Source: Candidatus Harrisonbacteria bacterium
GTDB taxonomy: Bacteria; Patescibacteriota; Minisyncoccia; UBA6257; 02-FULL-45-10c
Assembly: GCA_016192685.1 (NCBI GenBank)
Contig: JACPTS010000001.1
Location: 33,412 to 97,411 of the forward strand
Reading direction: 5' to 3'
DNA length: 64,000 nt
Every line of letters starts with the position of its first letter. Within the stretch, counting starts at the first letter, position 1. Made by a program: the position numbers and the translations under genes. This document shows, in pieces, positions 7,909 to 39,448 of this stretch. The notes below the pieces were generated by a model. The model made no database searches. It was not told where the DNA came from and saw only the letters and a program-made list of their open reading frames with translations.

Positions 7909-7980
7909 TCCGGGATAGCTCAGCGGTAGAGCGGCGCGCTGTTAACGCGACGGTCGCAGGTTCGATCCCTGCTCCCGGAG
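7909..7980 (+). tRNA. tRNA-Asn (anticodon GUU)
   Basis: cloverleaf folded by hand: acceptor TCCGGGA/TCCCGGA, D-stem GCTC/GAGC, anticodon loop CTGTTAA, T-stem GCAGG/CCTGC with TTCGATC loop, discriminator G; CCA not encoded. Confidence 0.8.
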
Positions 7981-9603
7981 CAAAGGGCGTGATTTGGGGT
8001 AGAAATCCCCGAATCGTGCCTTCACTGGGGGCTTTTCCGAGGTTCGAATATTATTTCGAGGTTCGGAGAGCTCCAACGCATGGTTGAAAGGTTCCATGAG
8101 CAATGCACCGCTAAATATGGCGGTGTTTTGCTTTGGTTCGAATTTTTTCCATGCGGGGGTAAACTTTGCGAGTATTTCAAAGGCTTTGCTGTAACCGACG
8201 GTCAGTTCACCGTCTTTTATGGTGAGCGTTGAAAACATCAGGTTCATTAAGAGTCGTTTCTCGTCTATCGTCCGTTTCGGGTTTGAGTAAATCTCTTTGG
8301 CGCGATGCGCGAGATCAATAATACTTGCCCCTAGCTCATAGTATTTGTTACCCGCATTGTCTAGCTTCTTGAGTTCCGAAAGCACTTCCTCTTTTTCTTT
8401 GGTGTATTGATCATATTTCGTTTGATAAAATTCTGGCGTGATTTTGCCGTCAATCTTATCGTCATAAATTGCTTCAAGCCGTTTCTGCACGATCTGATAG
8501 CGGCTATTGAGGTTACTCCTAACGCCTGAACTGTAGGAAATCTCGTCAGCGTGGCTATCATTCAAGGCTTTCTTGATCCACTCAATGAGCCGTTCGTTTT
8601 TAAGGTTTATCTTCTCGAAGTACGGCATCAGGTTTTCCTCTACCTTTTCTTGGCGTATAAATTTGCGCTGGGTGCAATTGCGGTACTTATTGCAATGGCC
8701 GTACCAATGTCCTTTTTGAATTTCCCATGTAACCGATCCGCCACACTCCGAACACTTGATAAGTGCTTTGAAAAGCGGCGTGTGTTTGCGATAACGCGGT
8801 GCGCCATTTCTTTTAATTTTTACCTGTACCGCATTGAATAAGTCCTCGTTGATAAGCGGTTCATGTGCGCCTGCGTGAATTGCGCCGTTGTAGCGAATCT
8901 TGCCGATATAAAAAGGGTCTGTTAGGAGTTCGGCAACGCGGGATTTATAGACCTTGCCGCCACTCGAGCTTTTCAAACCCGCGTCATACAAAACATTCAC
9001 GATGGTCTTGGTTGAGTAATTGCCAGTTGCGTACATCTCAAACATTTTCTTTACGATATGCGCTTTCTCCTCATCGATGACATGAGTCTTGCGCCCTTTT
9101 TCTCCAATGCTCTTGTAGCCAAGCGGCGGTTTTGTCGGCAGCCATCCTTGCCGTAGTTTCTCGCCGAGCCCCTTTTTCACTTCCTCCGAAAGATTATCAA
9201 TATAGTTTTTTGCAAAAAGAATACGAATGCCCCAGTTTAGCTTTTCTTGCGATTTTGAGTTTTTGTGGAGTATCAACGAATCCTTCACGAGGTGTACTTG
9301 TCGTTCCTCATCTTCTTCGAGCCATTCATCAATCGAGACGGCGTCTTTGAAGTTACGGGTGAGACGATCCACTTTCTCGCAGATGATGACTTTGATTCCT
9401 TGCTTAGTTACATACTCCATCATCTGCCCGAAAACCTCTCGTTGTTTCTTGCCGCTTGCAGATTCAGAGATTGAAAAAACCTTGCCGATCTGGAATGTTT
9501 TCCTTTCGGCATATTCTTTGAGGAACTTCTCTTGAGCAGGCAGAGAATAGCCTGTTTCCTCTTGGTCTTTTGATGATACTCTTGCGTAAATTACGGCTTT
9601 CAT
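7942..9603 (-). CDS. large serine recombinase (integrase)
   Basis: N-terminal resolvase domain with catalytic Ser (IYARVSS), recombinase domain, zinc ribbon (CSECGG...CNKYRNC), coiled-coil; 3' end overlaps the tRNA-Asn 3' half. Confidence 0.85.
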   Translation of the reverse strand: MKAVIYARVSSKDQEETGYSLPAQEKFLKEYAERKTFQIGKVFSISESASGKKQREVFGQMMEYVTKQGIKVIICEKVDRLTRNFKDAVSIDEWLEEDEERQVHLVKDSLILHKNSKSQEKLNWGIRILFAKNYIDNLSEEVKKGLGEKLRQGWLPTKPPLGYKSIGEKGRKTHVIDEEKAHIVKKMFEMYATGNYSTKTIVNVLYDAGLKSSSGGKVYKSRVAELLTDPFYIGKIRYNGAIHAGAHEPLINEDLFNAVQVKIKRNGAPRYRKHTPLFKALIKCSECGGSVTWEIQKGHWYGHCNKYRNCTQRKFIRQEKVEENLMPYFEKINLKNERLIEWIKKALNDSHADEISYSSGVRSNLNSRYQIVQKRLEAIYDDKIDGKITPEFYQTKYDQYTKEKEEVLSELKKLDNAGNKYYELGASIIDLAHRAKEIYSNPKRTIDEKRLLMNLMFSTLTIKDGELTVGYSKAFEILAKFTPAWKKFEPKQNTAIFSGALLMEPFNHALELSEPRNNIRTSEKPPVKARFGDFYPKSRPLLREQGSNLRPSR

Positions 9604-9635
9604 TGTGGTTAGTCTGATTATAAATGGTTAACGTT

Positions 9636-9971
9636 TTATATCCAGAAATTTGGGGGAAGCCCCGCCTTGTCTGGGTATTCAAGGATTAGTTGCTTAACTT
9701 TGCGCTTTAATCCCTCAATGTCGTCCAAGACTTCGACGAGACGCCGAAACCAAGCATCGAATTCTGGTTTCTTGTCGATTTTGGCCTTGCTATCAGCGGC
9801 TATCAGATCGCAGGTGCGCCAGAGGAGTTTTGTGGTGTACGCCCTGCTTAAATGATGATCTTTTCTATCGAGTTCTTGCCACAATGCTCGTGCACTAATA
9901 TCAGGACGCTCTTTGAGTATTGTCCTTATTAGTTCTATGTGCAGGTTTTGTTTTTCTTTTGAGTATTTCAT
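9636..9971 (-). CDS. hypothetical protein (111 aa), possible small DNA-binding/directionality factor
   Basis: sits directly upstream of the integrase; basic, helical; no motif recognised. Confidence 0.3.
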   Translation of the reverse strand: MKYSKEKQNLHIELIRTILKERPDISARALWQELDRKDHHLSRAYTTKLLWRTCDLIAADSKAKIDKKPEFDAWFRRLVEVLDDIEGLKRKVKQLILEYPDKAGLPPNFWI

Positions 9972-10192
9972 GGATCGTTATTATTGATTTCACCCTGCTC
10001 CATTCCGCTCTAAGGGAGTTTATATGGTTCGTGATGGATTATTATTTTTGAATCGTTGTGCTGTTTTGCACGGTTTAGGACGGGGGGTGTTGTCGACGAT
10101 GGTTCGTTATGGGTTTTTTTTACAGTTCTTTAATTGTCTTTAAATTTCTTTAGGTTTCTTTACTGCGCGGAGTGTTCAGTCAGTTGAACACC

Positions 10193-10645
10193 TTACTTCG
10201 GAAACCGCTTATCGTAAGCCAATTTTCGCATCTGCCTTTCTAACTCTGTCGGGTCTCGCTGTTTAATTATCTGAACATCTTGTTCAGTCGGCTGAACGCC
10301 CTGTTCAATACGCTGAAGTAGTTGTTCAGCTATGTGAACACGCTCTTGATATATCCACAGATTCTTAACCCTGATTCGCTTCTCTGGCGTCCTCTCAAGA
10401 AGTCCTTTCCGAATCAGGCCACTCGTTCCCATGCTTATTTTCCCGATCGACCAACTTGCTAAATAAAGCCTTTGGATTTCTCGCAGCGATTCTTTTACTG
10501 TGGCAAAACCACTATGTCGTTTATCCCAGTCGGCGAGGCGACGATAAAGCAGCCAAAGTCGAAACTCGGTATCGTTGAGTTGCTTCTCAAGCTCGATTTC
10601 AATTCTGAACAGTTTTATGCAGCCTTTCTTTTTCATGATCGTCAT
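10193..10645 (-). CDS. hypothetical protein (150 aa), possible winged-helix DNA-binding protein
   Basis: contains iteron-like TGTTCAG DNA repeats; followed by a perfect 20-bp palindrome at 10171..10190. Confidence 0.3.
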   Translation of the reverse strand: MTIMKKKGCIKLFRIEIELEKQLNDTEFRLWLLYRRLADWDKRHSGFATVKESLREIQRLYLASWSIGKISMGTSGLIRKGLLERTPEKRIRVKNLWIYQERVHIAEQLLQRIEQGVQPTEQDVQIIKQRDPTELERQMRKLAYDKRFPK

Positions 10646-10812
10646 TGTAATTTTTGTCCTTGAAGTCGAGCCTCATCAGATGGTCAAAGAGTCCTACGAG
10701 TCGTTGGCCAACCTCAAACACTTCCTCGGGCGGCAAATTTTGCCCGAATTCGGCCCGAAGGATTGCAGATAGGTCATTTAGGTGCTCTTTGCTCAACATG
10801 GTGTGACACGGG

Positions 10813-11067
10813 TCAAACAGGCTCGTACAGGCGCGTCTTTAACGCCTTGAGTTGGTCAAAATAAGCGCGAACCTCGACCTTGAGCTCACGATTCCAGAAA
10901 GTCTCAAGGAGCTGGTCGAGCTCTCGAGACTTTCGGAATACAAAGTACGCCCGCCTGCGATCGGTTTTATCTATGGCTTCAATCGGCAAAAACAAAGAGA
11001 CCGCAGCAGCCAGCGCCAGATCTGCGGTTTGATAAAAATCTTTTGATTGCAGTATTTGCGTTGTCAT
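10813..11067 (-). CDS. hypothetical protein (84 aa)
   Basis: ORF only. Confidence 0.25.
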   Translation of the reverse strand: MTTQILQSKDFYQTADLALAAAVSLFLPIEAIDKTDRRRAYFVFRKSRELDQLLETFWNRELKVEVRAYFDQLKALKTRLYEPV

Positions 11068-11150
11068 AGTAATTTTTTTAAACGAAAAAGCAGACTTTTC
11101 TTTAAGTCTGCTCGAAAGGCCGTTGAGTCAATTACGACTCGTATTGTGTT

Positions 11151-11801
11151 TTAGAAATTGCGCTTGATTGTTCTATTTTCCCAAGTAAAAAGCGTATCTT
11201 TGGTGTTGATCACCTCTTTGATTCGGTTGTTTAGAGCATACATGGTGTCCTGAACTGTGCGTTTGTATTTCGCTTCCGCGATATCTTCCTGCCCGCCTGT
11301 CATCTGTCTGTAAACAGCTGACCAGTCAACTGGCTCATTTGGCCTGTATGAAAACATTGCGCGGCAGAAAAAGTGTTCATTCTTGAATGGCGGCAATGAA
11401 CACTTGCGCTTGCCAACGTGAATGGTTGCTTCCTCATCATCAAAATTTATTCTTTCGTCTTTGAGGGATACTGGCTGGTTAGTTTCTAGGGCATCAATTT
11501 TACTAAGATCAAATAAGCGCTGTCGTTCTGCGAGTAATTTTTTCTCTGTAATTCTATCAAGCTTTGGTATCACGTGTTGTGTGCCACCGTTTTGAAATTC
11601 AAAGGTGCGGATAGCGCCCTTCTTTTTCAGGGTTACGAGTAAATCTTCTATCATCTTAATACTGAGCCCATTTTGCGGTAATGATGGTATCTCAAGGATG
11701 TGAAGAGAAATTTCACCACCCCTTTTGGTTGTCTCATTCTTGATAAGAATTGTATCAATTATGTCTATGAGCCGTTGATATGGGCTCTCGGAGATATTCA
11801 T
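11151..11801 (-). CDS. hypothetical protein (216 aa)
   Basis: ORF only. Confidence 0.35.
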   Translation of the reverse strand: MNISESPYQRLIDIIDTILIKNETTKRGGEISLHILEIPSLPQNGLSIKMIEDLLVTLKKKGAIRTFEFQNGGTQHVIPKLDRITEKKLLAERQRLFDLSKIDALETNQPVSLKDERINFDDEEATIHVGKRKCSLPPFKNEHFFCRAMFSYRPNEPVDWSAVYRQMTGGQEDIAEAKYKRTVQDTMYALNNRIKEVINTKDTLFTWENRTIKRNF

Positions 11802-11824
11802 TGTAATTGTAATATCTAGCTTTA

Positions 11825-12148
11825 ATGAACCTCCCCGATTTGCCTCGTTTCTCTAAAAGTTGCACAAAATCCGATAAATGTAAACCAGCCGTGCGTTATT
11901 CACTTTTGCTATCCGGCGATATATTGTGTAAACTGATGTTAAGTCGCATTTTTATGTCGAAACTGAGTAAAAAAGCCAAAGCACTGCCAGAAATCCTAAC
12001 GCTCGCGCAGACGTGTGAAGTTTTAAATTGTCATCCGAATACGCTCCGTAACTGGGATCGCCGCGGAGTTTTAACAGCGATTCGCTTCGGGACACGCAAA
12101 GATCGACGTTACAAGAAGAGCGATGTTTTCAAGTTGATTGAATCTTGA
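11825..12148 (+). CDS. MerR/excisionase-family helix-turn-helix protein (start probably at internal MSKLSKK, about 11954)
   Basis: LTLAQTCEVLNCHPNTLRNWDRRGVLTAIRFGTRKDRRYKKSDV matches the HTH_17/MerR-type excisionase fold. Confidence 0.5.
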   Translation: MNLPDLPRFSKSCTKSDKCKPAVRYSLLLSGDILCKLMLSRIFMSKLSKKAKALPEILTLAQTCEVLNCHPNTLRNWDRRGVLTAIRFGTRKDRRYKKSDVFKLIES

Positions 12149-12163
12149 AATAAAAAGGTTAAA

Positions 12164-13984
12164 ATGACGATGAAAATTAAGGATATACCCAAAATAGAAC
12201 GCCCAAGAGAAAGATTTCTCCAAAAAGGGTCAGAGGCACTTTCAAAAAGTGATCTTTTGGCGATTATACTCGGAAGTGGGATAAAGGGTAAAAATGTTCA
12301 AAAACTCGCCCAGCAAATAATCAAGCAATTCAGCGATAAGTTTTTGGATGTTACTGTGGATGATCTAAAAAATATTTCTGGAATTGGAGAAGCAAAGGCA
12401 CTACAGATTGCAGCAGCTATTTCCTTAGTCAAAAGATTTTATGAAGAAGGCAAAGGAAATGAAGTTGTTATTAAAAATTCGAAAGACGCCCTCTCCCTCG
12501 TTTATGATTTGCGAGATAAAAAAAAGGAGCATCTGATTTGCCTATACTTGAATGCCAGAAATATTCTAATCAAAAAAGAAACAATTAGTATCGGGCTACT
12601 TGATAAAAGTCTTTTACATCCAAGAGAAATATTTTATCCAGCTGTTGAGTCAAATGCAGCAAGTATTATTTTGATTCATAATCATCCCTCAGGAGATCCC
12701 ACTCCAAGCGAAAAAGATATTGCGGTTGTGGAAAAGATAATCCGCGCAGGCGAAATAATGGGAATATCTGTAACAGATTTTCTCATTACTGCAGGTAGCG
12801 GAAATTATAGTTTTTACGAAACCCTAAAGGATAGAGGTACTGATTTTGAGTACGTGTCCGACGGATCACAGGGCGCATTGTTCGATTTATTAGAAACTAA
12901 AAAGGCTGATTATGGAGTAGATGCGGAAAGGATACAAGAAACCTATTTTTATATCCCGCCGATGAAAAAAAATCATCTCCAATTGCAGAATCGTAGATAT
13001 ATTGGGAGTAAACACAAACTGATTGAATGGATTTTTTCTATCATTAATAAAGAATGTAGAGGGGGAAACTCTTTTGCCGACGTTTTTGCTGGGACAGGAG
13101 TTGTATCAGCTGTCGCGGCACGGCATTTTGATGAAATAATACTGAACGATTTTTTATATTCTAATTATGCAATCTACCAAGCCTTTTTTAGTAAAGATGT
13201 GTGGGATAAAAAGAAAATTGATGATGTCATCAAAAACTATAACAACATTAATGGTGAAGATTTAGAAAATAATTACTTTTCTGAGCACTTTGGTGGAAAA
13301 TACTTCAGCCATAATTCCTCAAAGATAATCGGCTTTGTCAGAGAGAATATAGAGGAAAATAAGAATAATTTAACAAATAAAGAATATTACATTCTTATTT
13401 CTTCTTTGCTGTACTCAATCGATAAGATCGCTAATACCGTTGGTCATTATGATGCATATTTTAAGAAAGACCATATTGAAGATGGGTTTTTTATGAGGCC
13501 GATAGACCCCATTGAGGTAAAAAGGGTGACTATTTATAAAGAAGATACAAACTTATTGGCGAAGAAAATTAAAGCGGATGTGGTTTATATTGATCCGCCT
13601 TATAACTCAAGACAATACAGCCGTTTTTACCACGTGCTCGAGACTCTTACCAAATGGGACAAACCAAAGCTATACGGGACAGCACTAAAACCAGAAGAAG
13701 AAAATATGAGCGATTACTGTAAGGTACAAGCCAAAGACAGACTCGCCGAATTAATAAGAGACCTTAATGCTAAATATTTAGTAGTGTCTTACAATAATAC
13801 CTATGATTCAAAAAGCAATTCATCGAAAAATAAAATTACTCTAGAGGAGATAAAAAATATTTTAACAGCAAGGGGCAAGACAAAGATTTTTGAAAAAGAT
13901 TACCGACATTTTAATGCCGGAAATACTGATTTCAAAAATCATAAAGAATACCTTTTTGTAACCACCACTAATAATGCAAAATAA
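12164..13984 (+). CDS. fusion protein: RadC-like JAB domain (N-terminal) + D12-class N6-adenine DNA methyltransferase (C-terminal)
   Basis: N-terminal HhH (ISGIGEAKALQIAAA) and JAB motif ILIHNHPSGDPTPSEKD; C-terminal YIGSKHKL, FAGTGVVS (FxGxG) and VVYIDPPYN (DPPY). Confidence 0.75.
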   Translation: MTMKIKDIPKIERPRERFLQKGSEALSKSDLLAIILGSGIKGKNVQKLAQQIIKQFSDKFLDVTVDDLKNISGIGEAKALQIAAAISLVKRFYEEGKGNEVVIKNSKDALSLVYDLRDKKKEHLICLYLNARNILIKKETISIGLLDKSLLHPREIFYPAVESNAASIILIHNHPSGDPTPSEKDIAVVEKIIRAGEIMGISVTDFLITAGSGNYSFYETLKDRGTDFEYVSDGSQGALFDLLETKKADYGVDAERIQETYFYIPPMKKNHLQLQNRRYIGSKHKLIEWIFSIINKECRGGNSFADVFAGTGVVSAVAARHFDEIILNDFLYSNYAIYQAFFSKDVWDKKKIDDVIKNYNNINGEDLENNYFSEHFGGKYFSHNSSKIIGFVRENIEENKNNLTNKEYYILISSLLYSIDKIANTVGHYDAYFKKDHIEDGFFMRPIDPIEVKRVTIYKEDTNLLAKKIKADVVYIDPPYNSRQYSRFYHVLETLTKWDKPKLYGTALKPEEENMSDYCKVQAKDRLAELIRDLNAKYLVVSYNNTYDSKSNSSKNKITLEEIKNILTARGKTKIFEKDYRHFNAGNTDFKNHKEYLFVTTTNNAK

Positions 13985-14879
13985 AATTAAAAGATCCCCG
14001 TTGTTTTACGTCGGGGATAAATACAAGTTAATGAACCAATTGATTGGTTTATTTCCACGGGAAGTGAGCAATTTTTACGAACCTTTTGTCGGCGGCGGTA
14101 CGGTCTTTTTGAATGTTCAAGCGAACAAATACTATCTGAATGACAATGATAAAAATCTTATTGATATACAGAGATTTTTGATTGGTAGTTCAAGTAACCC
14201 AACCTCATTTTTTAAGAATGTTGAAAAGATAGTAAAAAGATATCATCTATCACGATCTTACAAGGAAGACGTAATCCCTTCTTCGTTAAAAAAGGAGTGG
14301 AAGAAAACCTACTTTGCCAGATTTAATAAAAGGGGTTATGAGAAATTAAGGGCTTGTGTAAATAAAAATATAAAGAATGAACCTTTGATTCTGTATATTT
14401 TGCTGATATACGGATTTAATAGAATGTTAAGATTTAATGGTGGTGGCAAGTTTAATCTGCCGGTTGGTAATGTTGATTTTAACAAAAATGTTGTTAACGC
14501 CTTAAACGGATATTTTGACTTTGTCCAAAATAAAAAAATAATCTTAAGCTCAAAAGATTTTAGAATCTATTTCGTTGGCAGGAAGTATGCAAAAAATGAT
14601 TTTGTCTATCTTGACCCCCCTTATTTAATAACGGCGAGCGAATATAATAAGCGTTGGGACGAAAAAGCTGATGCTGACTTACTGAAAATTATTGATGACC
14701 TGAACGAAAAAGGTGTTAAATTTGCCTTATCAAATGTTACTTATTACAACGGCAATAAAAATAACTTGCTGATCGATTGGATGAAAAAGTATAAGACTCA
14801 TAAGATTGAAAGTAATTATATTAATTACCATGATAACGGCAAAAAGCAGATCAGAGAAGTACTGATCACTAATTATTAA
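13974..14879 (+). CDS. Dam-like (D12 class) N6-adenine DNA methyltransferase
   Basis: YVGDKYKL, EPFVGGGTVFLN (motif I), VYLDPPYL (motif IV); 301 aa. Confidence 0.8.
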   Translation: MQNKIKRSPLFYVGDKYKLMNQLIGLFPREVSNFYEPFVGGGTVFLNVQANKYYLNDNDKNLIDIQRFLIGSSSNPTSFFKNVEKIVKRYHLSRSYKEDVIPSSLKKEWKKTYFARFNKRGYEKLRACVNKNIKNEPLILYILLIYGFNRMLRFNGGGKFNLPVGNVDFNKNVVNALNGYFDFVQNKKIILSSKDFRIYFVGRKYAKNDFVYLDPPYLITASEYNKRWDEKADADLLKIIDDLNEKGVKFALSNVTYYNGNKNNLLIDWMKKYKTHKIESNYINYHDNGKKQIREVLITNY

Positions 14880-14883
14880 GATT

Positions 14884-16410
14884 ATGAAAAAACGCGAATC
14901 AGAATATAAACCATTGTTGTTTACCACAACACTTAGAAATCCAGAACGATTAAAATGGTTTTTAGGTGTGCTTAAAGATTATGACGGACAAGTTCTCAAC
15001 GATACATTGGCTGAAGAAATTGCTGGTGAAATTATTCGAGTAGGCCTTTATAAACCGATCAAAATTAGTTCGACTGTTAAGAAGAAAATAGAAACCAAAG
15101 AGCCTCTGTCTGACAGGGAAGTCCGAATAGTGCTTGCTAATAATCCCCAAAACCATAAAGAAGCCGGTTTTAGTAAGGGCTGGGCTTCTAGATTTGATAC
15201 ATGGTTCAAAATAGCTAAAGAGCTTGGATTCGTTTATTACCAAAATGGCAAAAAAATCAGATTCTCTGAAATAGGGCTCAGGTTGGTTGATAATGAGCAC
15301 CCTGAATTTGAACAGCAGGCCTTTCTCAACGCATTCGTAAAATATCAGAGCAATAGCCCTTTCCGGAGAGTATTAAATGAAAATGCCCCTTTGATTTTAT
15401 TGTTAGGTGTAATTAAGAGAATAAATGCCGATAAGAGGTTTAACGGAACCGGAATTTCAAAGTTAGAATTGCCCTTAGTAATTTTCTGGAAAGATAACAA
15501 CGCAGAAAAGCTATATCAACTTATAAAGAAAATAAGAAAAGAGTACGGCTATAATCCGAGCTGGGAAGTTATCGTAGATATTTGCGTGAATCAAATAATG
15601 GGCGGCGAGTTCAAAAAATTTAACCACAAGTCCATAATGGTGGACTATCCGGATGAATTTATTAGAAAAATGCGATTGACCGGCTTGATCTCTTTAAGAG
15701 GAGCTGGTCGATTTGTTGATATAAATAAAAATGAACAAGCTAAGGTTGATTATGCTTTAGCGAATTATTCTCAATACAAAAAATACGCTTCAGAGGAAGA
15801 ATATTTTGAATACATGTCAATGGTGGATGAGAATCTTCTCTCGTTCGTTGCCAAACCAGTCAGCATTGGAGAACGCGATAAATTCTTGACTAAATGGATA
15901 AGCATTTATTCTTGGCAAAAAATTACTGACGAACTGCTTATTTTAGCTAAAGACAAACTGACAAAAGATGATATTTTGAAGTATTTATCAAGTCCAGTAA
16001 GGTTAGAGTTTCTTGTTGCTTTGGCGGTAAAATCTAAATTCCCCGATGTAAAGGTTATTCCTAACTATCCTTATGACGACGAGGGTTTACCGACGTCAAC
16101 GGCTGGCGGTATCGGTGATAAGGGAGATATTGAATGTTATGAGAGTGTTAATGGAGTACTGATTGAAGTGACTATGTCAGAGGGGAGAATACAAACAGTT
16201 ATGGAGATCTGGCCAATCGCTAGGCATTTAGAGGAGTTCAGTAAAAAAGTTGAACATTCGATGTGTTATTTCGTTGCCCCAAGTATTTTTAGAGATTCTG
16301 TACGGCAGATCGAATTTGTAAAAGAGAAAGACAATCTTTCTATTTTACCCAAGACCATCAAAGACTTTTTGAATCATTTAGAAAGTAGCAAGTCTCTATA
16401 CCCAGCATAA
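14884..16410 (+). CDS. candidate restriction endonuclease partner of the two methyltransferases (508 aa; possibly type IIS, AlwI-like; family not verified)
   Basis: operon position immediately after two adenine MTases; size fits type IIS/nicking enzymes; no unambiguous catalytic motif identified by eye. Confidence 0.35.
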   Translation: MKKRESEYKPLLFTTTLRNPERLKWFLGVLKDYDGQVLNDTLAEEIAGEIIRVGLYKPIKISSTVKKKIETKEPLSDREVRIVLANNPQNHKEAGFSKGWASRFDTWFKIAKELGFVYYQNGKKIRFSEIGLRLVDNEHPEFEQQAFLNAFVKYQSNSPFRRVLNENAPLILLLGVIKRINADKRFNGTGISKLELPLVIFWKDNNAEKLYQLIKKIRKEYGYNPSWEVIVDICVNQIMGGEFKKFNHKSIMVDYPDEFIRKMRLTGLISLRGAGRFVDINKNEQAKVDYALANYSQYKKYASEEEYFEYMSMVDENLLSFVAKPVSIGERDKFLTKWISIYSWQKITDELLILAKDKLTKDDILKYLSSPVRLEFLVALAVKSKFPDVKVIPNYPYDDEGLPTSTAGGIGDKGDIECYESVNGVLIEVTMSEGRIQTVMEIWPIARHLEEFSKKVEHSMCYFVAPSIFRDSVRQIEFVKEKDNLSILPKTIKDFLNHLESSKSLYPA

Positions 16411-16415
16411 ATAAT

Positions 16416-17156
16416 ATGTCTACGCAAAGAGGAAAAATCGTAAGTGCCGTCTTACAGATTCTAAAAGATAAACCAGAGGGCATTAGGTACTCCGAATTAT
16501 TCAGAGCCGTAAAAAATACTCTCCCAGAAGCAAACGACAATACCGTTCACAGCACTATTTGGGATTTGGATAAAAAAGTTGCAGAGATAACTAAACCAGA
16601 AAGGGGAATTTTCATATTGAGGCAATATATCAAGGAGGGGGCTGAAATAAAATTACGAGAGGAAAAAATAAGTAAGGGCATAAGCGAGAGCGCTTTTTAT
16701 GCTTCATTTGCGGATTATTTGGTTAAAGACTTAGGAGAGTGTACCAAGGCCGTTCCGCTTGGGGGCAATAGGTTTGGCGATAGATGGGGAACTCCTGATG
16801 TTTTTGGTGTATATAAATTTTCTGAAACTGACCGAATACGACCGCAACCAGAAATCGTGAGCGCAGAGATTAAGACTGATACAAGTCAAATTATAACAGC
16901 ATTTGGGCAGGCATGTGCCTATAAACTTTTTAGCCACAAGGTCTATCTGGTTATCCCTGAAGATGCCGAACGAGATATAGAAAGGGTAGAATCGCTTTGT
17001 ATGCGTTTCGGTATAGGTTTGATTTTATTTGATAAAAATAATGCTGAAAATCCTAATTGGGCTATCCGTGCTCGCGCCAATAAAAGTGAGCCTGATTTCT
17101 TCTATGTAAATAAATACCTTGAACAGCTCGGAGATGACTTGAAAAATTTATTTTAG
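16416..17156 (+). CDS. Mrr-like nuclease: N-terminal winged helix + PD-(D/E)xK catalytic core
   Basis: N-terminal IVSAVLQILKD...GIRYSELF (Mrr_N-like); TPDVFGV ... VSAEIKTD fits a PD..ExK motif. Confidence 0.5.
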   Translation: MSTQRGKIVSAVLQILKDKPEGIRYSELFRAVKNTLPEANDNTVHSTIWDLDKKVAEITKPERGIFILRQYIKEGAEIKLREEKISKGISESAFYASFADYLVKDLGECTKAVPLGGNRFGDRWGTPDVFGVYKFSETDRIRPQPEIVSAEIKTDTSQIITAFGQACAYKLFSHKVYLVIPEDAERDIERVESLCMRFGIGLILFDKNNAENPNWAIRARANKSEPDFFYVNKYLEQLGDDLKNLF

Positions 17157-17158
17157 AA

Positions 17159-18058
17159 ATGAAAGACGTTAAAGATTTAATAAAACTCGACGACGTAAAA
17201 AAATTAAAGGTTATGAATATTTTTCAAAAAATCATTGAGGTATTAACGGAAATTTTCTTTCGAAAGGACACAGCTCCGCCAAGCGTACCAACGCAGCCGC
17301 ATCAAGTTATTTCGACACCGCCGTCCCCAGATCAATCGCCAGCTCCAGTTCCTCCCTCAGTCGAACCAACAGTGACAGAATCCGCAACGCCCCTAACTCA
17401 AAATCAGGAACAGCCAGTTATTCTTAAAAATGCGGGGTTCTCCATTACTGCTGAACAATTAAAACAAATAGTACCCACGTTGTCAGATAGTAAATGCAAG
17501 GAATACTTGCCACATTTGTTTCAAACAATGACAGAGTTTGAAATAAATACGCCCATTCGTTTAGCTGCATTTATTGCTCAAACCGCACATGAATCAGCCG
17601 GATATTCCGCATTTCTTGAAAATCTAAATTATTCTGCACAAGCCCTTCTCAATACATGGCCAAACCGCTTTACGCCAGAAAGTGCTGCGATTTATGCACG
17701 ACAACCAGAAAAAATCGCAAACCATGTTTATATTAATCGTTTGGGGAATGGAGATGAGGCGAGTGGTGATGGATGGCGATACCGAGGACGAGGAGTAATT
17801 CAGACCACTGGACGCATTAACTACAAAGCATGTGGAGCTGGCCTAGGACTTGATTTGATCACATCTCCAGAATTACTTGAGCAGCCCTTAAACGCTTTTC
17901 GTTCAGCTGGATTGTACTGGAAGAGTCGCAATTGTAATTCTTTTGCCGACAGCGATAATTTCACTGGGCTTACAAAGGCAATTAACGGTGGTCTAAACGG
18001 ATTAGATGATCGAAAAGCTTATTATGCACGTGCAAAATCTGTGCTGGGCATTGTATAG
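17159..18058 (+). CDS. glycoside hydrolase family 19 (phage endolysin/chitinase-like) with Pro-rich N-terminal linker
   Basis: FIAQTAHESAGYS core motif typical of GH19; Pro/Ser/Thr-rich linker PPSVPTQPHQVISTPPSPDQSPAPVPPSVEP. Confidence 0.65.
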   Translation: MKDVKDLIKLDDVKKLKVMNIFQKIIEVLTEIFFRKDTAPPSVPTQPHQVISTPPSPDQSPAPVPPSVEPTVTESATPLTQNQEQPVILKNAGFSITAEQLKQIVPTLSDSKCKEYLPHLFQTMTEFEINTPIRLAAFIAQTAHESAGYSAFLENLNYSAQALLNTWPNRFTPESAAIYARQPEKIANHVYINRLGNGDEASGDGWRYRGRGVIQTTGRINYKACGAGLGLDLITSPELLEQPLNAFRSAGLYWKSRNCNSFADSDNFTGLTKAINGGLNGLDDRKAYYARAKSVLGIV

Positions 18059-18068
18059 TTAAAAAACT

Positions 18069-18611
18069 ATGTTCAATAAAACTGATTTTGAAAACATAGT
18101 TTGGGACTTCCTGTTCACGTACAGGCAGTTTCTGCTCAACGGATATTTACATAAAAGAGTAAACCATGATGTGTATGAAGCAAATACTGCTACTTGGAAT
18201 ACCTTACTTCTCAGCTTAGAATCGGGCGCTTTACTTGGTCTGGCAAAATTACTCGAACGAAAAGACGATTTAGGAAGACCATTTAATGGTGGCTTAGGAA
18301 AGACATTCAATAATGAAGAATTTAATAACGAAGAATTAAATGGAATTTCCGAGAAGATAATAAATCTGAGACATGCCTATATAGCGCATGCTGATTTATC
18401 AAAGATGCGCGATATAAACTCTTTTCTTACCAAAAATCGCTTGACTGGCACCGATATTGTTAAAATGTTTGATGCCCTTAAAAGTAGATTGATACAATAC
18501 CAGAAAAGCTTGAAGCTCGATGTCGATGTGCAAAAATTATTTACGGAAAGTCAAAATAGCGCACTTCACGATCTGAATAGCTGGCTAAAATCTTTTAACG
18601 CAGAGTCATAG
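18069..18611 (+). CDS. hypothetical protein with Rx5H motif (LRHAYIAH), possible HEPN/Abi-like
   Basis: 180 aa, alpha-helical composition, a single R-x5-H motif; weak. Confidence 0.3.
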   Translation: MFNKTDFENIVWDFLFTYRQFLLNGYLHKRVNHDVYEANTATWNTLLLSLESGALLGLAKLLERKDDLGRPFNGGLGKTFNNEEFNNEELNGISEKIINLRHAYIAHADLSKMRDINSFLTKNRLTGTDIVKMFDALKSRLIQYQKSLKLDVDVQKLFTESQNSALHDLNSWLKSFNAES

Positions 18612-18832
18612 TAGCTATTAAGAGCGTGGGGCTAACAGTCCTTGCATCTGATGCAGTGAAGTCTCGGGAAACTCAAATAATTCTTCCCAGCGGATGGTTC
18701 GAAACTCGTTGAAACGTGGGAGCTCAGAGATTATTATTCTTTTAACGAGACAGCCTGTCTACCGGCAGGCAGGTCTCAAGTTTCCTGCCCCCCTTGGAGG
18801 GAATCCCCGCTCCCGGAGCAAAAACAAAACAA

Positions 18833-18857
18833 AAAACGGCTCACTGGGAGCCGCTGG
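18833..18857 (-). terminator. intrinsic terminator for gene 18860..19045
   Basis: minus-strand hairpin cggctc-ccagt-gagccg followed by TTTTTT. Confidence 0.7.
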
Positions 18858-18859
18858 AT

Positions 18860-19045
18860 TTAAACAACATCGGGACCAAGATCAATTACGATGCCGCAAT
18901 GCGGACATTTAAAAAATCTTCCCTCTCCGTCCTCATCTAATGGATAGGCATCCACATGGGTCCAAACTTCATCTTCCTTTCTTTCTCCCGGAAAAGGCCG
19001 ATCTTTCGTGCATTCTTTTCTTATAATAGACTTACCTTTATCCAT
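18860..19045 (-). CDS. hypothetical small protein (61 aa)
   Basis: ORF followed by terminator. Confidence 0.3.
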   Translation of the reverse strand: MDKGKSIIRKECTKDRPFPGERKEDEVWTHVDAYPLDEDGEGRFFKCPHCGIVIDLGPDVV

Positions 19046-35950: not shown

Positions 35951-36265
35951 TTTTTAAAGAAAACTTTCTAGTTATCCCAACCTTATGCGGCCCGAATTTA
36001 ATCGGACAAGCAAATCGAGACTTGAGGCTCCTCGATCAAAACCTTTGCCTGCATTTTTCAATGCAGTATCGTACTCCATCAAATATAAATATTTGATTTT
36101 TGTTTAATTGATCCACGCACAGCTTCCGCTACGCGTGCCTTGTTACGACTTCTTCCATGTCACCGAATCTACCTTTATCCCGCCGAAGCGGAATTTCAGA
36201 TATCCCCGGCTCCCCTGAAGTGACGGGCGGTGAGTACAGGACTCGAGAACGTATTCACCGCGGCG

Positions 36266-36304
<39 letters not shown>

Positions 36305-36701
36305 GCGAGTTTCAGCCTCCAATCTGAACTGGGGCCATTTTTGATGGGATTAGCTCCGCCTTGCGGCTTGGCAACCCATTGTAATGGCCATTGTAGCACG
36401 AGTGTAGCCCAGGGCATCAGAGGGCCATGCGGATTTGACGTCATCCTCTCCTTCCTCCCCCAAAAAGAGGGCAGTCCCCGATGACACATATAACATCAGG
36501 TAAGGGTTGCGCTCGTTACCCCACTTAAGGGAACGTTTCAAAATACGAGCTGACGACAACCATGCAGCACCTGTCCAGCCGTTCCTTGAGAGAACATCCC
36601 ACGTTTCTGCGGGATTTCGTCTGGATTTCAAGCCCTGGTAAGGTTTCTCGCTTACTGTCGAATTGAACCTCATGCTCCACCGCTTGTGCGAGTCCCCGTC
36701 T

Positions 36702-36733
<32 letters not shown>

Positions 36734-37195
36734 TCCCAGGCGGCCTACTTAACGCGTTAGCTTCGCCACCCCGAGGGTCGATACTCGAGATAGCCAGTAG
36801 GCATCGTTTAGGGCGTGGACTACAAGGGTATCTACAATTTTGTTGCTTCGCAAAACTTTTATACTCGCTATGCTATTCTCGCTCATACTGCTGCGCGCTG
36901 GACAAAACTAATTCGCTCATAGCGGAAATTTATCACCCTAGTCGCATTCGCTCCTGGGTATCCCGATAAATTTCCTATTCGCTCAAAGTTTTGTAACCAT
37001 CGCTCCGCAACATTCGCTCAAACAGCATAACTCGTTTAATAATAGTTTTGCGTGACACAGACATTTCTGCTGTGTTCTCTGTGTTGCCATAGAGTTCGGA
37101 CTATATCATTCTCGCGCTTTGAAAAACGAATATCAATCATCTTGATACTCGTAGATCAAAGAGCGAGAATCGGCGTATAGTCTCTGAGGGGTTAA

Positions 37196-37450
37196 TTATT
37201 TTCCTTTTAATTTTTTGAGGTGTTTTTTCACGGTACGATCAACTAATTTAAACTCCGGTTCTTCCAAAATATCATGCGTTGTATATCCATATCTCTTACG
37301 GTCATTGGTTTTCCAAATTGCTTCAATAGACGGCAATCCTCTGCTTTTCAGTTCTTCATTCACGGTTTCTAGAACAGCTTTTAATTTCTTATTTGATTTG
37401 CTTGTGCAAACGATTTCTACAAACCTAAATTTTGAGTCAGGCCTTGACAT
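37196..37450 (-). CDS. intron-encoded small basic protein (84 aa from MSRPDSK), function unknown (no LAGLIDADG/GIY-YIG motif seen)
   Basis: preceded by a perfect Shine-Dalgarno AAGGAGGTG 7 nt upstream of ATG; embedded in the rRNA insertion. Confidence 0.35.
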   Translation of the reverse strand: MSRPDSKFRFVEIVCTSKSNKKLKAVLETVNEELKSRGLPSIEAIWKTNDRKRYGYTTHDILEEPEFKLVDRTVKKHLKKLKGK

Positions 37451-37803
37451 CGTCCACCTCCTTTTTAAATTAACTTCCCTGCTGGTTGTCCGCACCGACG
37501 CGTTTTCACCAGCGATTTGTTTTTGAAATTTCAAAAACAAATCGCTGGTAGCGTCGGATACGCCGGATTTTCCAGCATATAGCCGATTTTACATTCCAGT
37601 GTTGCCACTGAAAGGGACCATATGCGTCTCCGGAAAATTCCGGAGTCACTTCTTTATACCCTAAAGAGAGTGAGATTATTTTTGCGAACCAATAAAATTA
37701 TATTTGCTTCACTTATTTATCTATTTATCGTGCGGCAACATTTATTTTAATTTCTTGCCGAACTGCCGAGTTATCATAGAGAAACTTTATACAATCTAAA
37801 CGA

Positions 37804-37952
37804 GCTCTGCCTGTGTTTCGTGCGGCAACTACGGAGCTCCGAAATGCTTGGCTTTCGCGAAGCGAAAATTTCGGAGCGAGGCGTAGACGCGTTTCGCCGC
37901 AGGAGCGAAACGACGCCGGTGCCGTCAGAAATACAGGCGGAGCGAGTAAAAC
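37804..37952 (+). repeat. structured repeat family 1, copy 2 (inside the rRNA insertion)
   Basis: core identical to copies at 20079..20221 and 63517..63667; own terminal inverted repeat c(t/c)gcctgt(g/a)tttc. Confidence 0.6.
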
Positions 37953-38170
37953 TCATAGACAATTCGGCGGAGCGGCATTTTCAAAATGAATGCCGATGCC
38001 GGTAGACAAATAAGTGAAGCAAATGAGTTCGTAAAAATAACCGAACGATCCTTTTTGCTCCCCACGCTTTCGTGCAATGAGAGTCAGTAATGCGCCAGCC
38101 AAATGCTTTCGCCTTTGGTATTCCCCACGATATCAACGGATTTCACCCCTACACCGTGAGTTCTATTGGC

Positions 38171-38459
38171 CTCTCGCACACTCTAGACAAGTCCCCTCTG
38201 TACAAATGTTTCCACTAAATTGAAATCATTGATTTTGTATCAAGTTCAAGGCGCGAGGAGGAAATCGTAGGGTTACCTACCTTTCCGACTCGCAACGCAG
38301 AAATTGATCAAAATCAAGATTCCCGAAGGGTAAGGAAATTTTTGTCAGCTTCTTCGTTAGTCGTCGCTAGTGTATCTAAAGATACACTTCGCTCCTCCTG
38401 CCTTGAATTTAACTCAAAATTTCCTTATCAATTAGTGAAAATATTTGTACAGAGGGGAC
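38171..38459 (-). other. ~290-nt intervening sequence (IVS) in 16S helix region ~E. coli 650, bounded by a perfect 33-bp inverted repeat
   Basis: gtcccctctgtacaaatgtttccactaaattga ... tcaattagtgaaaatatttgtacagaggggac; flanks align to 16S; core homologous to 61408..61678. Confidence 0.7.
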
Positions 38460-38989
38460 AGCAGTTTTTGCTGCAGCCTCGAAGTTGAGCCCCGAGATTT
38501 AACAGCAAACTTGCTGGTCCTCCTACGCACTCTTTACGCCCAATAAATCCGGATAACGCTTGGAGCCCTCGTATTACCGCGGCTGCTGGCACGAGGTTAG
38601 CAGCTCCTTATTCCTCTGGTACTATCAGCCTTGCGGCTTTCTCCCAGAGAAAAGCAGTTTACAATCCTTAGACCTTCATCCTGCACGCGGCGTCGCTCGA
38701 TCAGGCTTTCGCCCATTGTCGAATATTCTCGACTGCTGCCACCCGTAGGTGTACGAGCCGTGTCTCAGTCTCGTCGTTGGGGAACACCCTCTCAGGCCCC
38801 CTACTGGTCATAGCCTTGGTAGGCCATTACCCTACCAACTAGCTGATCAGACCTAGGCCGCTCCCAAAGCCCCTTGCGGGTTTTAATCCGAATGTTGCAT
38901 CGGATGCTATCGGGCATTACCCCGCCTTTCGGCGAGCTGTGCCCGTCTTTAGGGTACGTACCAAGGTGTTACTAACTCGTTCGCCGCTC

Positions 38990-39075
38990 GCCTTCGGCTC
39001 GGACAAATAACTTTTAACAAATAACTAATAACGAAATTGTTAATAGTTATAAGTTATTTAGTTATTAGTCCGAGC
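38990..39075 (-). other. expanded V1 helix of 16S (~60-nt AT-rich palindromic extension)
   Basis: ggactaataactaaataacttataactattaacaatttcgttattagttatttgttaaaagttatttgtccgag between conserved GCAAGTCG and GGCGAACG. Confidence 0.5.
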
Positions 39076-39448
39076 TAAAAGCTCGCACGACTTGCATGCC
39101 TTATCCACGCCGCCAGCGTTCATCCTGGACCAGGATCAAATCCTCTAAATAAAAGTCAGTTGCACAGAACCCTCGAACGAGTTCCTAGCAACTAACCTTC
39201 GTATTGGGACAACTAGAAAATTTTCTTTTTTACTTGTAATTTTACTAAATTACTAAATTTTATATATTTAGTTATCAAGCCAGCATGTATTATCTTTAAT
39301 TAGTAAAAATAATACACCTATCTTGCGGTTCGTGGTTTTCACCGAGTCAAACTCGGCTTCACACCAGCGGCAAGATAGATGCATTTAGAACCTATCTAGT
39401 AATCTATGAAATTTTTAAATAAAAACTTATTTCATTAAGGTAGTTCTA

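Follow-up and report, generated by a model that had tools for sequence, protein, structure and literature searches.

Where does the mobile element beside the tRNA-Asn gene of this Candidatus Harrisonbacteria contig begin and end, and at which bases did its recombinase join it to the chromosome? The stretch analysed, hereafter the window, comprises 64,000 nucleotides (nt) of contig JACPTS010000001.1 (assembly GCA_016192685.1, positions 33,412 to 97,411), and coordinates are given from its first letter. Its sole tRNA gene, an intact tRNA-Asn(GTT) at 7909-7981 on the forward strand (ARAGORN; Rfam tRNA, 65.7 bits), converges with an open reading frame (ORF) of 553 amino acids (aa) for a large serine recombinase (LSR), the integrase gene int, at 7942-9603 on the reverse strand. 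An earlier note on this DNA had placed an integrative element at 7909-18822, with a pair of 20-bp direct repeats as its attachment junctions attL and attR. We consider it likely that an element of 10.74 kb, a member of a large family in Patescibacteria, is integrated at 7982-18723, that crossover takes place in a short core at the end of the tRNA-Asn gene, and that the attachment site of the element, attP, lies within int.

The boundaries were obtained by comparing the window with 80 JGI loci, in which int was oriented to the plus strand, and with one further locus, L113. Junction anatomy, spacing, reading frame and conservation across relatives are all shown by these sequences. Both ends of an integrated element were visible in six cases (the window, L025, L044, L048, L053 and L060; sizes 8.8-11.1 kb), and in 6/6 the only sequence common to attL and attR was the tetranucleotide GCTC, or GAGC in the orientation of the tRNA. 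In the window, the attL core GAGC occupies 7978-7981 on the forward strand, where it forms tRNA G71-A72-G73-C74; the element-side (P) half-site at attR covers 18697-18723, with GTTCGA at 18697-18702, a 17-nt spacer and the core GAGC at 18720-18723. The element predicted from these cores is 7982-18723, 10,742 bp. The same border emerged from seven elements whose backbones are 88-95% identical and which adjoin differing host sequences, among them tRNA-Asn, tRNA-Gln and intron-containing tRNA-Asn: identity ends at ...CATCCCATATGGCTC, after which the own tRNA body of each host follows. Two of the loci, L025 and L026, are 94% identical up to the base preceding the tRNA 3′ end. In L113, which holds the closest attP-form integrase (73% identity to that of the window), the integrase-side (P′) arm of the window is found nearly base for base up to GCTC, and a different sequence, a P arm, comes next.

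The spacing of the outer motif distinguishes the two kinds of arm. In tRNA arms, the T-loop sequence TCGAAC was located exactly 12 nt from the core in 52 of the 80 loci under a strict anchored classification, whereas at tRNA-free, attP-type junctions T(C/A)GAAC was located exactly 17 nt from it (12 loci); the far ends of integrated elements, including 18697-18723 of the window, have the +17 spacing. Rutherford et al. described in the LI integrase-DNA structure a zinc-ribbon motif 5 bp further out in attP than in attB (PMC3783163). Because our two spacings match this 5-bp rule, we regard +17 as attP-type and +12 as attB-type, so that a core of 4 bp (6/6) and the shifted outer motif together give the attachment sites of the family the form known for LSRs. 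By the same rule, 18697-18723 of the window is a genuine P half-site with its core at 18720-18723. The 3′-terminal ~22 nt of the tRNA (7960-7981) constitute the host-side (B) half-site, with GTTCGA at 7960-7965, 12 nt from the core. Should the TC of GCTC be the central dinucleotide, the motif would extend to position 19 in attB and to 24 in attP, in agreement with LI.

Considering these half-sites, the LSR would recombine the attP of the element with the extreme 3′ end of the tRNA-Asn gene, which would act as attB. On the host side the enzyme would read the last ~20 nt of the tRNA, with the T-loop TTCGAA as the motif of the zinc-ribbon domain; on the element side it would meet this motif 5 bp further from the core, which is what the structural model of serine integrases demands. 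The crossover dinucleotide probably lies inside the GAGC core. As this core corresponds to tRNA positions 71-74, the crossover would fall at the last acceptor pair and the discriminator, leaving the tRNA intact; the trailer alone (with the CCA where it is encoded) would be replaced by element-derived sequence.

What, then, is the repeat? Copy 1, ATCCCTGCTCCCGGAGCAAA, lies at 7965-7984 on the forward strand and runs from the T-loop through the tRNA 3′ end plus AAA; copy 2, ATCCCCGCTCCCGGAGCAAA, lies at 18803-18822 and matches it at 19/20 positions. At up to 3 mismatches no other match exists on either strand of the 64 kb, and 100 shuffled sequences yielded 0 (chance expectation 0). Identity stops at the 20-mer, with no extension on either side, and the lone mismatch is at tRNA position 63, where the T of the tRNA pairs with A51 and the C of the distal copy would not. 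The earlier note was thus right that the repeat exists and that the LSR ORF overlaps the 3′ half of the tRNA gene, the stop and the last 13 codons being inside it. In the model that follows from it, the element spans 7965-18822, the repeats are attL and attR, crossover occurs in the repeat and the tRNA 3′ end is restored. The repeat is indeed far beyond chance, and T-loop to 3′ end is the usual sublocation of tRNA islands. In addition, the host (B′-side) flank after the distal copy, AAAAACAAAAC... (18820-18860, forward strand, with a hairpin at 18838-18854), resembles the attR flank of L044, whose first 10 bases beside the core, AAAAACAAAA, are identical to it; the original attB probably ended there. 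Against this, relatives lack a tRNA-derived repeat, and all share only GCTC: when relatives were searched over 10 kb for a second copy of the tRNA 3′ end, nothing rose above noise, and the repeat of the window was recovered as positive control. A conserved P arm and tail precede the distal copy, which begins at 18803, 79 nt past the attR core. Were the circle closed through the 20-nt repeat, its ORF would have 560 aa and none of the conserved tail of the integrase described below; the distal copy diverges exactly where the TCGAAC of the tRNA arm should stand, and a serine recombinase does not use long identity. We therefore find crossover in the repeat very improbable. The repeat is predicted to be a by-product and no recombination site; the integrated element at tRNA-Asn with defence cargo stands, within 7982-18723 instead of 7909-18822, and the caveat that the earlier note itself had made, that serine integrases need no long direct repeats, was right.

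The two models predict different junctions. For crossover in the core, the circle would read ...GGTTCGAAACTCGTTGAAACGTGGGAGC joined to AAAGGGCGTGATTTGGGG and the empty site ...ATCCCTGCTCCCGGAGC joined to TCAGAGATTATTATTC; written otherwise, the circle would read ...CGTGGGAGC joined to AAAGGGCG, with an empty site that keeps the relic at ...GGAGC joined to TCAGAG. Crossover in the repeat would give a circle ...CCTTGGAGGGAATCCC(C/T)GCTCCCGGAGCAAA joined to GGGCGTG and an empty site ...GGAGCAAA joined to AACAAAAC.

The relic mentioned in these junctions is the 96-nt segment 18724-18819, between the attR core at 18720-18723 and a second GAGC at 18816-18819, and it contains copy 2 of the repeat. 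Read inward from the outer core, 13 nt copy the tRNA arm and then diverge exactly at the expected TCGAAC; 5 nt further on, 17 nt from the core, there is TCCAAG, a 4/6 match to TCGAAC. By this spacing the predicted layout of the relic is that of a P arm and not of a displaced tRNA end. L044 (1481-2756) has, distal to its intact element, two further P arms, at ~1491 and ~2047, both decayed and with degenerate tails, and TTTTGTTTTTGCTC is present both at the host junction and at the attR of that element. We give about even chances to the relic being the decayed end of an older family member with a tRNA-mimicking arm, the present element having inserted later between relic and tRNA; a duplication of other origin is possible. 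The 78 nt preceding the distal copy were also considered as a remnant of a group I intron or tRNA exon, which was rejected, the sole similarity being a 20-nt hairpin found elsewhere too. This hairpin, CCTG(C/T)CTACCGGCAGGCAGG, was observed in the relic (18754-18773), in a group I intron of L069 (3379-3398) and in an unrelated region of L013 (4696-4715), and may be a dispersed small repeat of these genomes.

As to the integrase itself, Pfam recognised a Resolvase domain (PF00239, 1.2e-22, residues 3-153), a Recombinase domain (PF07508, 3.6e-18) and Zn_ribbon_recom (PF13408, 3.2e-5; 24.7 bits, slightly below the 25.3 cut-off), and the protein matches the PHROG 95 integrase (1e-81). The catalytic motif YARVSS occupies residues 6-11, and its Arg-Val-Ser-Ser columns show a conservation of at least 90% across 57 homologues; among the zinc-ribbon cysteines of the same alignment, C295, C298 and C321 are invariant and C315 is at least 90% conserved. 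The last 13 residues are encoded by the antisense strand of the tRNA, on which the complement of the anticodon-loop TTA (7942-7944) supplies the stop TAA. The NCBI record, MBI3045959.1, has 367 aa and is without the catalytic domain; the 553-aa ORF is intact in the window and in the Logan contigs.

At the other end of the element, 18618-18722 on the reverse strand, there are 34 codons and a stop (LPRFNEFRTIRWEELFEFPETSLHQMQGLLAPRS) without a start codon of their own. Joining the cores 7978-7981 and 18720-18723 puts this detached tail in frame with int, giving 575 aa instead of 553. The fusion is in frame and free of stops in 6/6 integrated elements (frame-only chance ~0.0014). Homologous tails were found at the far ends of L025, L026, L044, L048, L053 and L060 and at attP-type junctions, and at 12 of the latter the int ORF runs across the core into a conserved tail. 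Two kinds of tail, unrelated to each other, were distinguished: type 1, LLxxW(D/N)(D/E)FRTxxW...F..P......Q(I/M)xxLL, and type 2, ..D(V/I)RT(Y/F)(Y/F)Q... Among the 120 closest proteins, a regular expression identified 11 type-1 tails, and 37 proteins that end in a tRNA-antisense peptide (...R(G/E)QDSNLxP); when the remaining C-termini were read, the tail-bearing number rose to ~20. A search of 1.8 billion representatives with the 34-aa tail returned 8 short fragments only.

The AlphaFold2 model of P0051, a homologue in the tail form, has a mean predicted local distance difference test (pLDDT) of 81.8 and shows the canonical LSR fold to about residue 500, with long helices at 329-451 (embedded coiled coil). 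Its top Foldseek matches were the full-length SPbeta, Bxb1, LI and phiC31 integrases (E = 1e-20 to 1e-9). A disordered linker, 505-517, comes just ahead of the core-encoded residues (~522), and short tail helices follow at 524-552, with only moderate confidence (pLDDT 50-73), which counts against our reading of the tail. With the fold ending at about 500 and the crossover in a disordered linker, integration would, according to this model, keep all known domains of the integrase and swap an appended module of ~34 aa for a short arbitrary peptide. The free or tandem form would encode the 575-aa protein with its C-terminal tail; integration would strand the tail codons 10.7 kb away, and int would then end in the tRNA-antisense peptide. 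The exchange may alter the activity or the direction of the integrase.

Could the tail be a mere consequence of the DNA? The ORF would then continue past the core as a side effect of the constraint on P-arm DNA, and the functional enzyme would be the common core of ~540 aa. The retention of every known domain in the integrated form fits this explanation, as do the existence of two unrelated tail types, the lack of a Pfam match for the tail sequence and the 'RT' residues of the tail, which are at least partly dictated by the DNA motif TT(C/A)GAAC itself. However, conservation extends ~100 nt past the core, far beyond a 25-bp half-site, and its pattern is at the amino-acid level, W..FRT..W...F..P......Q(I/M)..LL; between L025 and L026 the tail codons differ by 6 synonymous and 2 non-synonymous changes, and the frame is kept stop-free in all six elements. 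A tail devoid of regulatory function is, in our judgement, the less probable explanation, although one with an appreciable share of the probability.

The integrase-side arm has further features. It covers 7982-8048 and includes a hairpin (7996-8010) and, 60 nt from the core, a distal GTTCGAA (8042-8048). The hairpin, 12-14 nt from the core, was observed at the same position in L025, L044, L060, L061 and L088, its stem being kept through covarying sequences (GGGGTAGAAATCCCC in the window, GCAGAGCTTTTGGCTCTGC in L088, and others). Several relatives have a T-run behind the hairpin in the tRNA orientation, and the element may supply a terminator for the tRNA. As to the second TTCGAAC (8042-8048 in the window), it encodes a conserved F-E-P of the integrase. 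It stands 61 nt from the core in 59 loci and 60 nt from it in 5, the window included, and the intervening sequence varies; among 61 distinct sequences, 57 keep both wobble bases unchanged. This suggests a role at the DNA level, possibly as an accessory binding site; we know of no described counterpart for an extra TTCGAAC at a fixed 60-61 nt.

On the host side, the flanks at the core vary widely, and because of this the integrase seems tolerant of host-side flank sequence, which would allow elements to stack. At two junctions of unrelated elements (L026, 11632-11756; L089, 11581-11696) one and the same foreign sequence, CGTACCCCTTTTAGTAGACACTTTAGAAACCC..., stands where the tRNA or P arm would be; it starts at or just before the expected core and both contigs end at the identical point. 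Another repeated mobile element may insert there. In L053 (9512-9547) the arm adjoining the core consists of no more than a ~20-nt piece of a tRNA 3′ end (GCTCGGGTGATAGGATTCGAA); unrelated sequence comes next, and a distinct tRNA-Lys lies beyond it. The attachment site in this case seems to have been a tRNA-end fragment alone.

The family is extensive. Integrase homologues numbered more than 3,900 at E ≤ 1e-10, and the best 120 were all at least 50% identical over the aligned region; IMG/VR gave integrase matches of 26% identity only. A convergent tRNA directly follows int in ~40 of the 80 loci, mostly tRNA-Asn and in a few cases tRNA-Gln, -Lys, -Tyr, -Ser or -Asp. About 16 more loci have a tRNA-Asn that ARAGORN overlooked, with a group I intron in the anticodon loop (L030, L033, L039, L052, L057, L065, L066, L068, L069, L080, L084, L093, L094, L096, L097 and L100); Rfam RF00028 confirmed the intron in five of them. 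Group I introns in tRNA-Asn genes of Patescibacteria were recently described (PMC13011429), and the use of intron-containing genes fits an integrase that recognises only the 3′ ~20 nt of the tRNA. Considering the family as a whole, we advance tentatively, as a possibility somewhat short of even, that these integrases are an undescribed, very large Patescibacteria LSR clade specialised on tRNA 3′ ends with the universal T-loop TTCGAA as zinc-ribbon motif, in which the tail, lost upon integration through an attP inside the gene and regained by excision or tandem insertion, is a state-dependent switch of integrase activity or direction, and the second TTCGAAC is an accessory binding site of a kind unknown for this enzyme class.

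Is the copy in the window still able to move? Several results weigh against the integrated, mobile element as we read it. Logan contigs, selected by the exact flanking methyltransferase or by the 75-aa protein of the right flank and coming from at least 8 runs, included no empty site: all were occupied or stopped near the tRNA. None of 39 full-length related contigs had the terminal overlap of a circle, and since no related contig is demonstrably circular, the attP-type junctions could be tandem arrays rather than free circles. The protein cluster of the integrase has two members, the 553-aa form and the 367-aa annotation, and no 575-aa circular form. Other searches for the site were also negative within their scope. 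Twelve loci of GTDB relatives of the methyltransferase (≤59% identity) were all without tRNA or flank synteny; its closer homologues in the protein collection (68-92% identity) are on contigs without synteny or ending inside the gene; synteny was likewise absent in relatives whose flank protein is 59-74% identical; and a degenerate attL/attR/attB/attP pattern had 0 matches in the JGI metagenomes and IMG/VR, from which the window itself is missing, so that the organism is not represented there. Sporadic occurrence is supported indirectly by the related elements, whose sharp boundaries lie at different tRNAs and in different hosts.

A fixed, immobile remnant, with an integrase that is domesticated or decaying and junction features that are historical, has in its favour that every site-reaching contig is occupied, that no protein of the circular form is on record, and that the adjoining relic shows decay at this site. 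On the other hand, the integrase ORF is intact with its catalytic motif, and the P′ arm, P arm, core and tail have all survived intact, with the frame preserved. Moreover, three Logan contigs from different runs (L005, L006 and L007) end at window position 8004, 23 nt past the core, and another (L008) ends at 7982, 1 nt past it, which suggests, from contig ends only, that co-existing variants or other elements occupy this tRNA in the same communities. A remnant is in our opinion unlikely, and we infer that this copy is still mobile.

The remaining genes of the element are a conserved backbone and a variable cargo. On the reverse strand, next to int, the small backbone genes of 9636-11801 are 9636-9971 (111 aa), 10193-10645 (150 aa), 10599-10799 (66 aa), 10813-11067 (DUF5659) and 11151-11801 (216 aa). 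Only DUF5659 has a Pfam match, and none of the set matched PHROG or PADLOC; homologues of the 150-aa, 66-aa, DUF5659 and 216-aa proteins were found by tblastn in the same int-adjacent position in many related loci. In relatives, replication genes adjoin int (Toprim, Prim-Pol, Rep_O-like and HTH_36 proteins). An excisionase-like protein of the HTH_17/MerR type is encoded at 11825-12148 on the forward strand (Pfam HTH_17, 1.5e-8; PHROG excisionase families), with homologues in L030, L033, L035, L040 and L041; it is a candidate directionality factor or regulator, with a presumed role in excision.

The cargo, all on the forward strand, begins with a Type IIS-like restriction-modification (R-M) system at 12164-16410. 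It is composed of a fusion of RadC and Dam (12164-13984), that is, a RadC-like JAB with a UPF0758 N-terminal domain joined to a D12 adenine methyltransferase, a second D12 methyltransferase (13974-14879) and an AlwI-family endonuclease (14884-16410), all assigned by Pfam and PADLOC (MTase_II, 2e-130 and 8e-105; REase_II, 4e-133). The cassette recurs, 79-86% identical, in the element of L093, where the RadC-D12 fusion is conserved at 79% identity. As the integrase of L093 is only 50% identical to that of the window, the cargo is modular. Downstream lie a 246-aa protein with a hint of winged helix-turn-helix (wHTH) and a PD...EIK (PD..ExK) motif read in the sequence (16416-17156), a GH19 endolysin-like protein (17159-18058; PHROG 181, E = 3e-87) and a HEPN/AbiU2-like protein (18069-18611; E = 1e-5, just under the Pfam cut-off) with a visible RHAYIAH motif. 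With a complete R-M system (PADLOC) and a HEPN AbiU2-like protein, the element is a defence-carrying one. The cargo of relatives varies and is mostly defence: type I R-M, Gabija-like OLD with UvrD, AbiEii, SNase and Schlafen-like proteins. In L096 (3083-3190, reverse strand) a LOOT RNA (RF03000, 66.5 bits) was observed inside a related element, upstream of its integrase.

With regard to the gene assignments of the earlier note, profiles from Pfam, PHROG and PADLOC agree with the R-M, GH19 and excisionase-type HTH genes. The Rx5H protein is the HEPN/AbiU2-like one, in which the motif is seen, and the 'Mrr-like nuclease' at 16416-17156 keeps its wHTH hint and readable motif and finds no support in profiles. 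The comparison of 7.9-18.8 kb with its flanks proposed there came out as expected for an island, with the most deviant tetranucleotide profile of the window (distance 0.30-0.345 vs 0.11-0.20 in most host windows); the G+C fraction was 0.348 in the R-M part vs 0.434 in the host. A prophage or packaging satellite was considered and rejected: Pfam and PHROG gave no match in the element to capsid, portal, terminase, tail or other virion and packaging genes, the endolysin-like gene being the only one of this kind. None of the 16 listed ORFs of the element has a Phage_integrase domain, and the sole recombinase is of the serine type.

How does this compare with known systems? The LSRs of phages and integrative and conjugative elements (Listeria A118/LI, Bxb1, phiC31, SPbeta SprA, TP901-1) share with the window family the resolvase, recombinase, zinc-ribbon and coiled-coil regions, a very short core and the 5-bp shift of the outer motif between attP and attB, and, here, a candidate small directionality factor. 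In contrast, structure-based identity is only 12-17%, with weak sequence matches to solved structures, and the window family targets a tRNA 3′ end with an attP inside the int ORF that changes the C terminus. Serine integrases were 'not known' to use tRNA genes (Hudson 2015); such use was later predicted for only 14 of 297, with a call for experimental proof (Mageeney 2020), and tRNA goes unmentioned in Durrant 2022. We found in the open-access literature no report of a serine integrase gene that spans attP and changes its C terminus.

An attP within the int ORF has been described for Mx8 (IntP/IntX) and SSV-type elements; integration alters the integrase of Mx8 and splits that of SSV, and tRNA genes are given as targets of the SSV type (Tojo 1996; Peng 2008; PMC7253208). 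The likeness to the window family, attP in the int ORF and a protein changed upon integration, is of arrangement only. Theirs are tyrosine recombinases with long identity segments, and the SSV gene is split in two, whereas the exchange in the window family is limited to an appendix of ~34 aa that lies past the canonical fold. Mx8 also uses a tRNA gene as its target. Tycheposons target tRNA genes and build tandem arrays with remnants. As integrative elements with site-specific integrases, these Prochlorococcus elements are the closest ecological analogue; many carry genes for autonomous replication, some carry ecologically relevant cargo, and 27 of 937 encode an LSR. They differ in being cyanobacterial, in depending overwhelmingly on tyrosine recombinases and in having no reported overlap of int and attP. 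Islander-type islands resemble the locus in lying beside a tRNA with int on the tRNA-proximal side, and the window has a displaced-looking tRNA 3′ fragment; in those islands, however, a tyrosine integrase and a tDNA fragment made by the crossover are required, whereas here the integrase is a serine one and the fragment is missing in relatives. SCCmec islands, moved by the serine recombinases CcrAB and inserted at the 3′ end of rlmH, a conserved gene, are likewise serine-recombinase islands; they are cargo-rich, lack virion genes and form tandem composites. Their target is protein-coding, they have two recombinases and repeats of 15-18 bp, and their hosts are Firmicutes.

Outside the element, the 16S rRNA gene at 36101-39151 (reverse strand) was found in two pieces, 36101-36924 and 37940-39151, separated by an insertion of ~1 kb (Rfam). 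Insertions in rRNA genes are common in Patescibacteria.

Dozens of independent junctions thus point to tRNA targeting by serine integrases at sites resolved to the base pair, and the sites of the family obey the 5-bp rule derived from a crystal structure, which makes them a natural test of that model. In annotation, errors arise easily at the tail 'exon', at the relic and where int runs on into the tRNA, as the 367-aa NCBI entry of the integrase illustrates. The family would be a source of integrases whose target, the final 20 nt of a tRNA, is universal and predictable; Patescibacteria are difficult to cultivate, genetic tools for them are scarce, and a native integrase with a known attB would be useful in them. 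The tail swap also leads to a testable hypothesis on how a serine integrase might sense its own integration state, and, if true, the state-dependent tail switch would be the serine-recombinase counterpart of Mx8 IntP/IntX. Through elements of 9-11 kb such as this one, R-M and other defence genes would be moved among ultrasmall bacteria.

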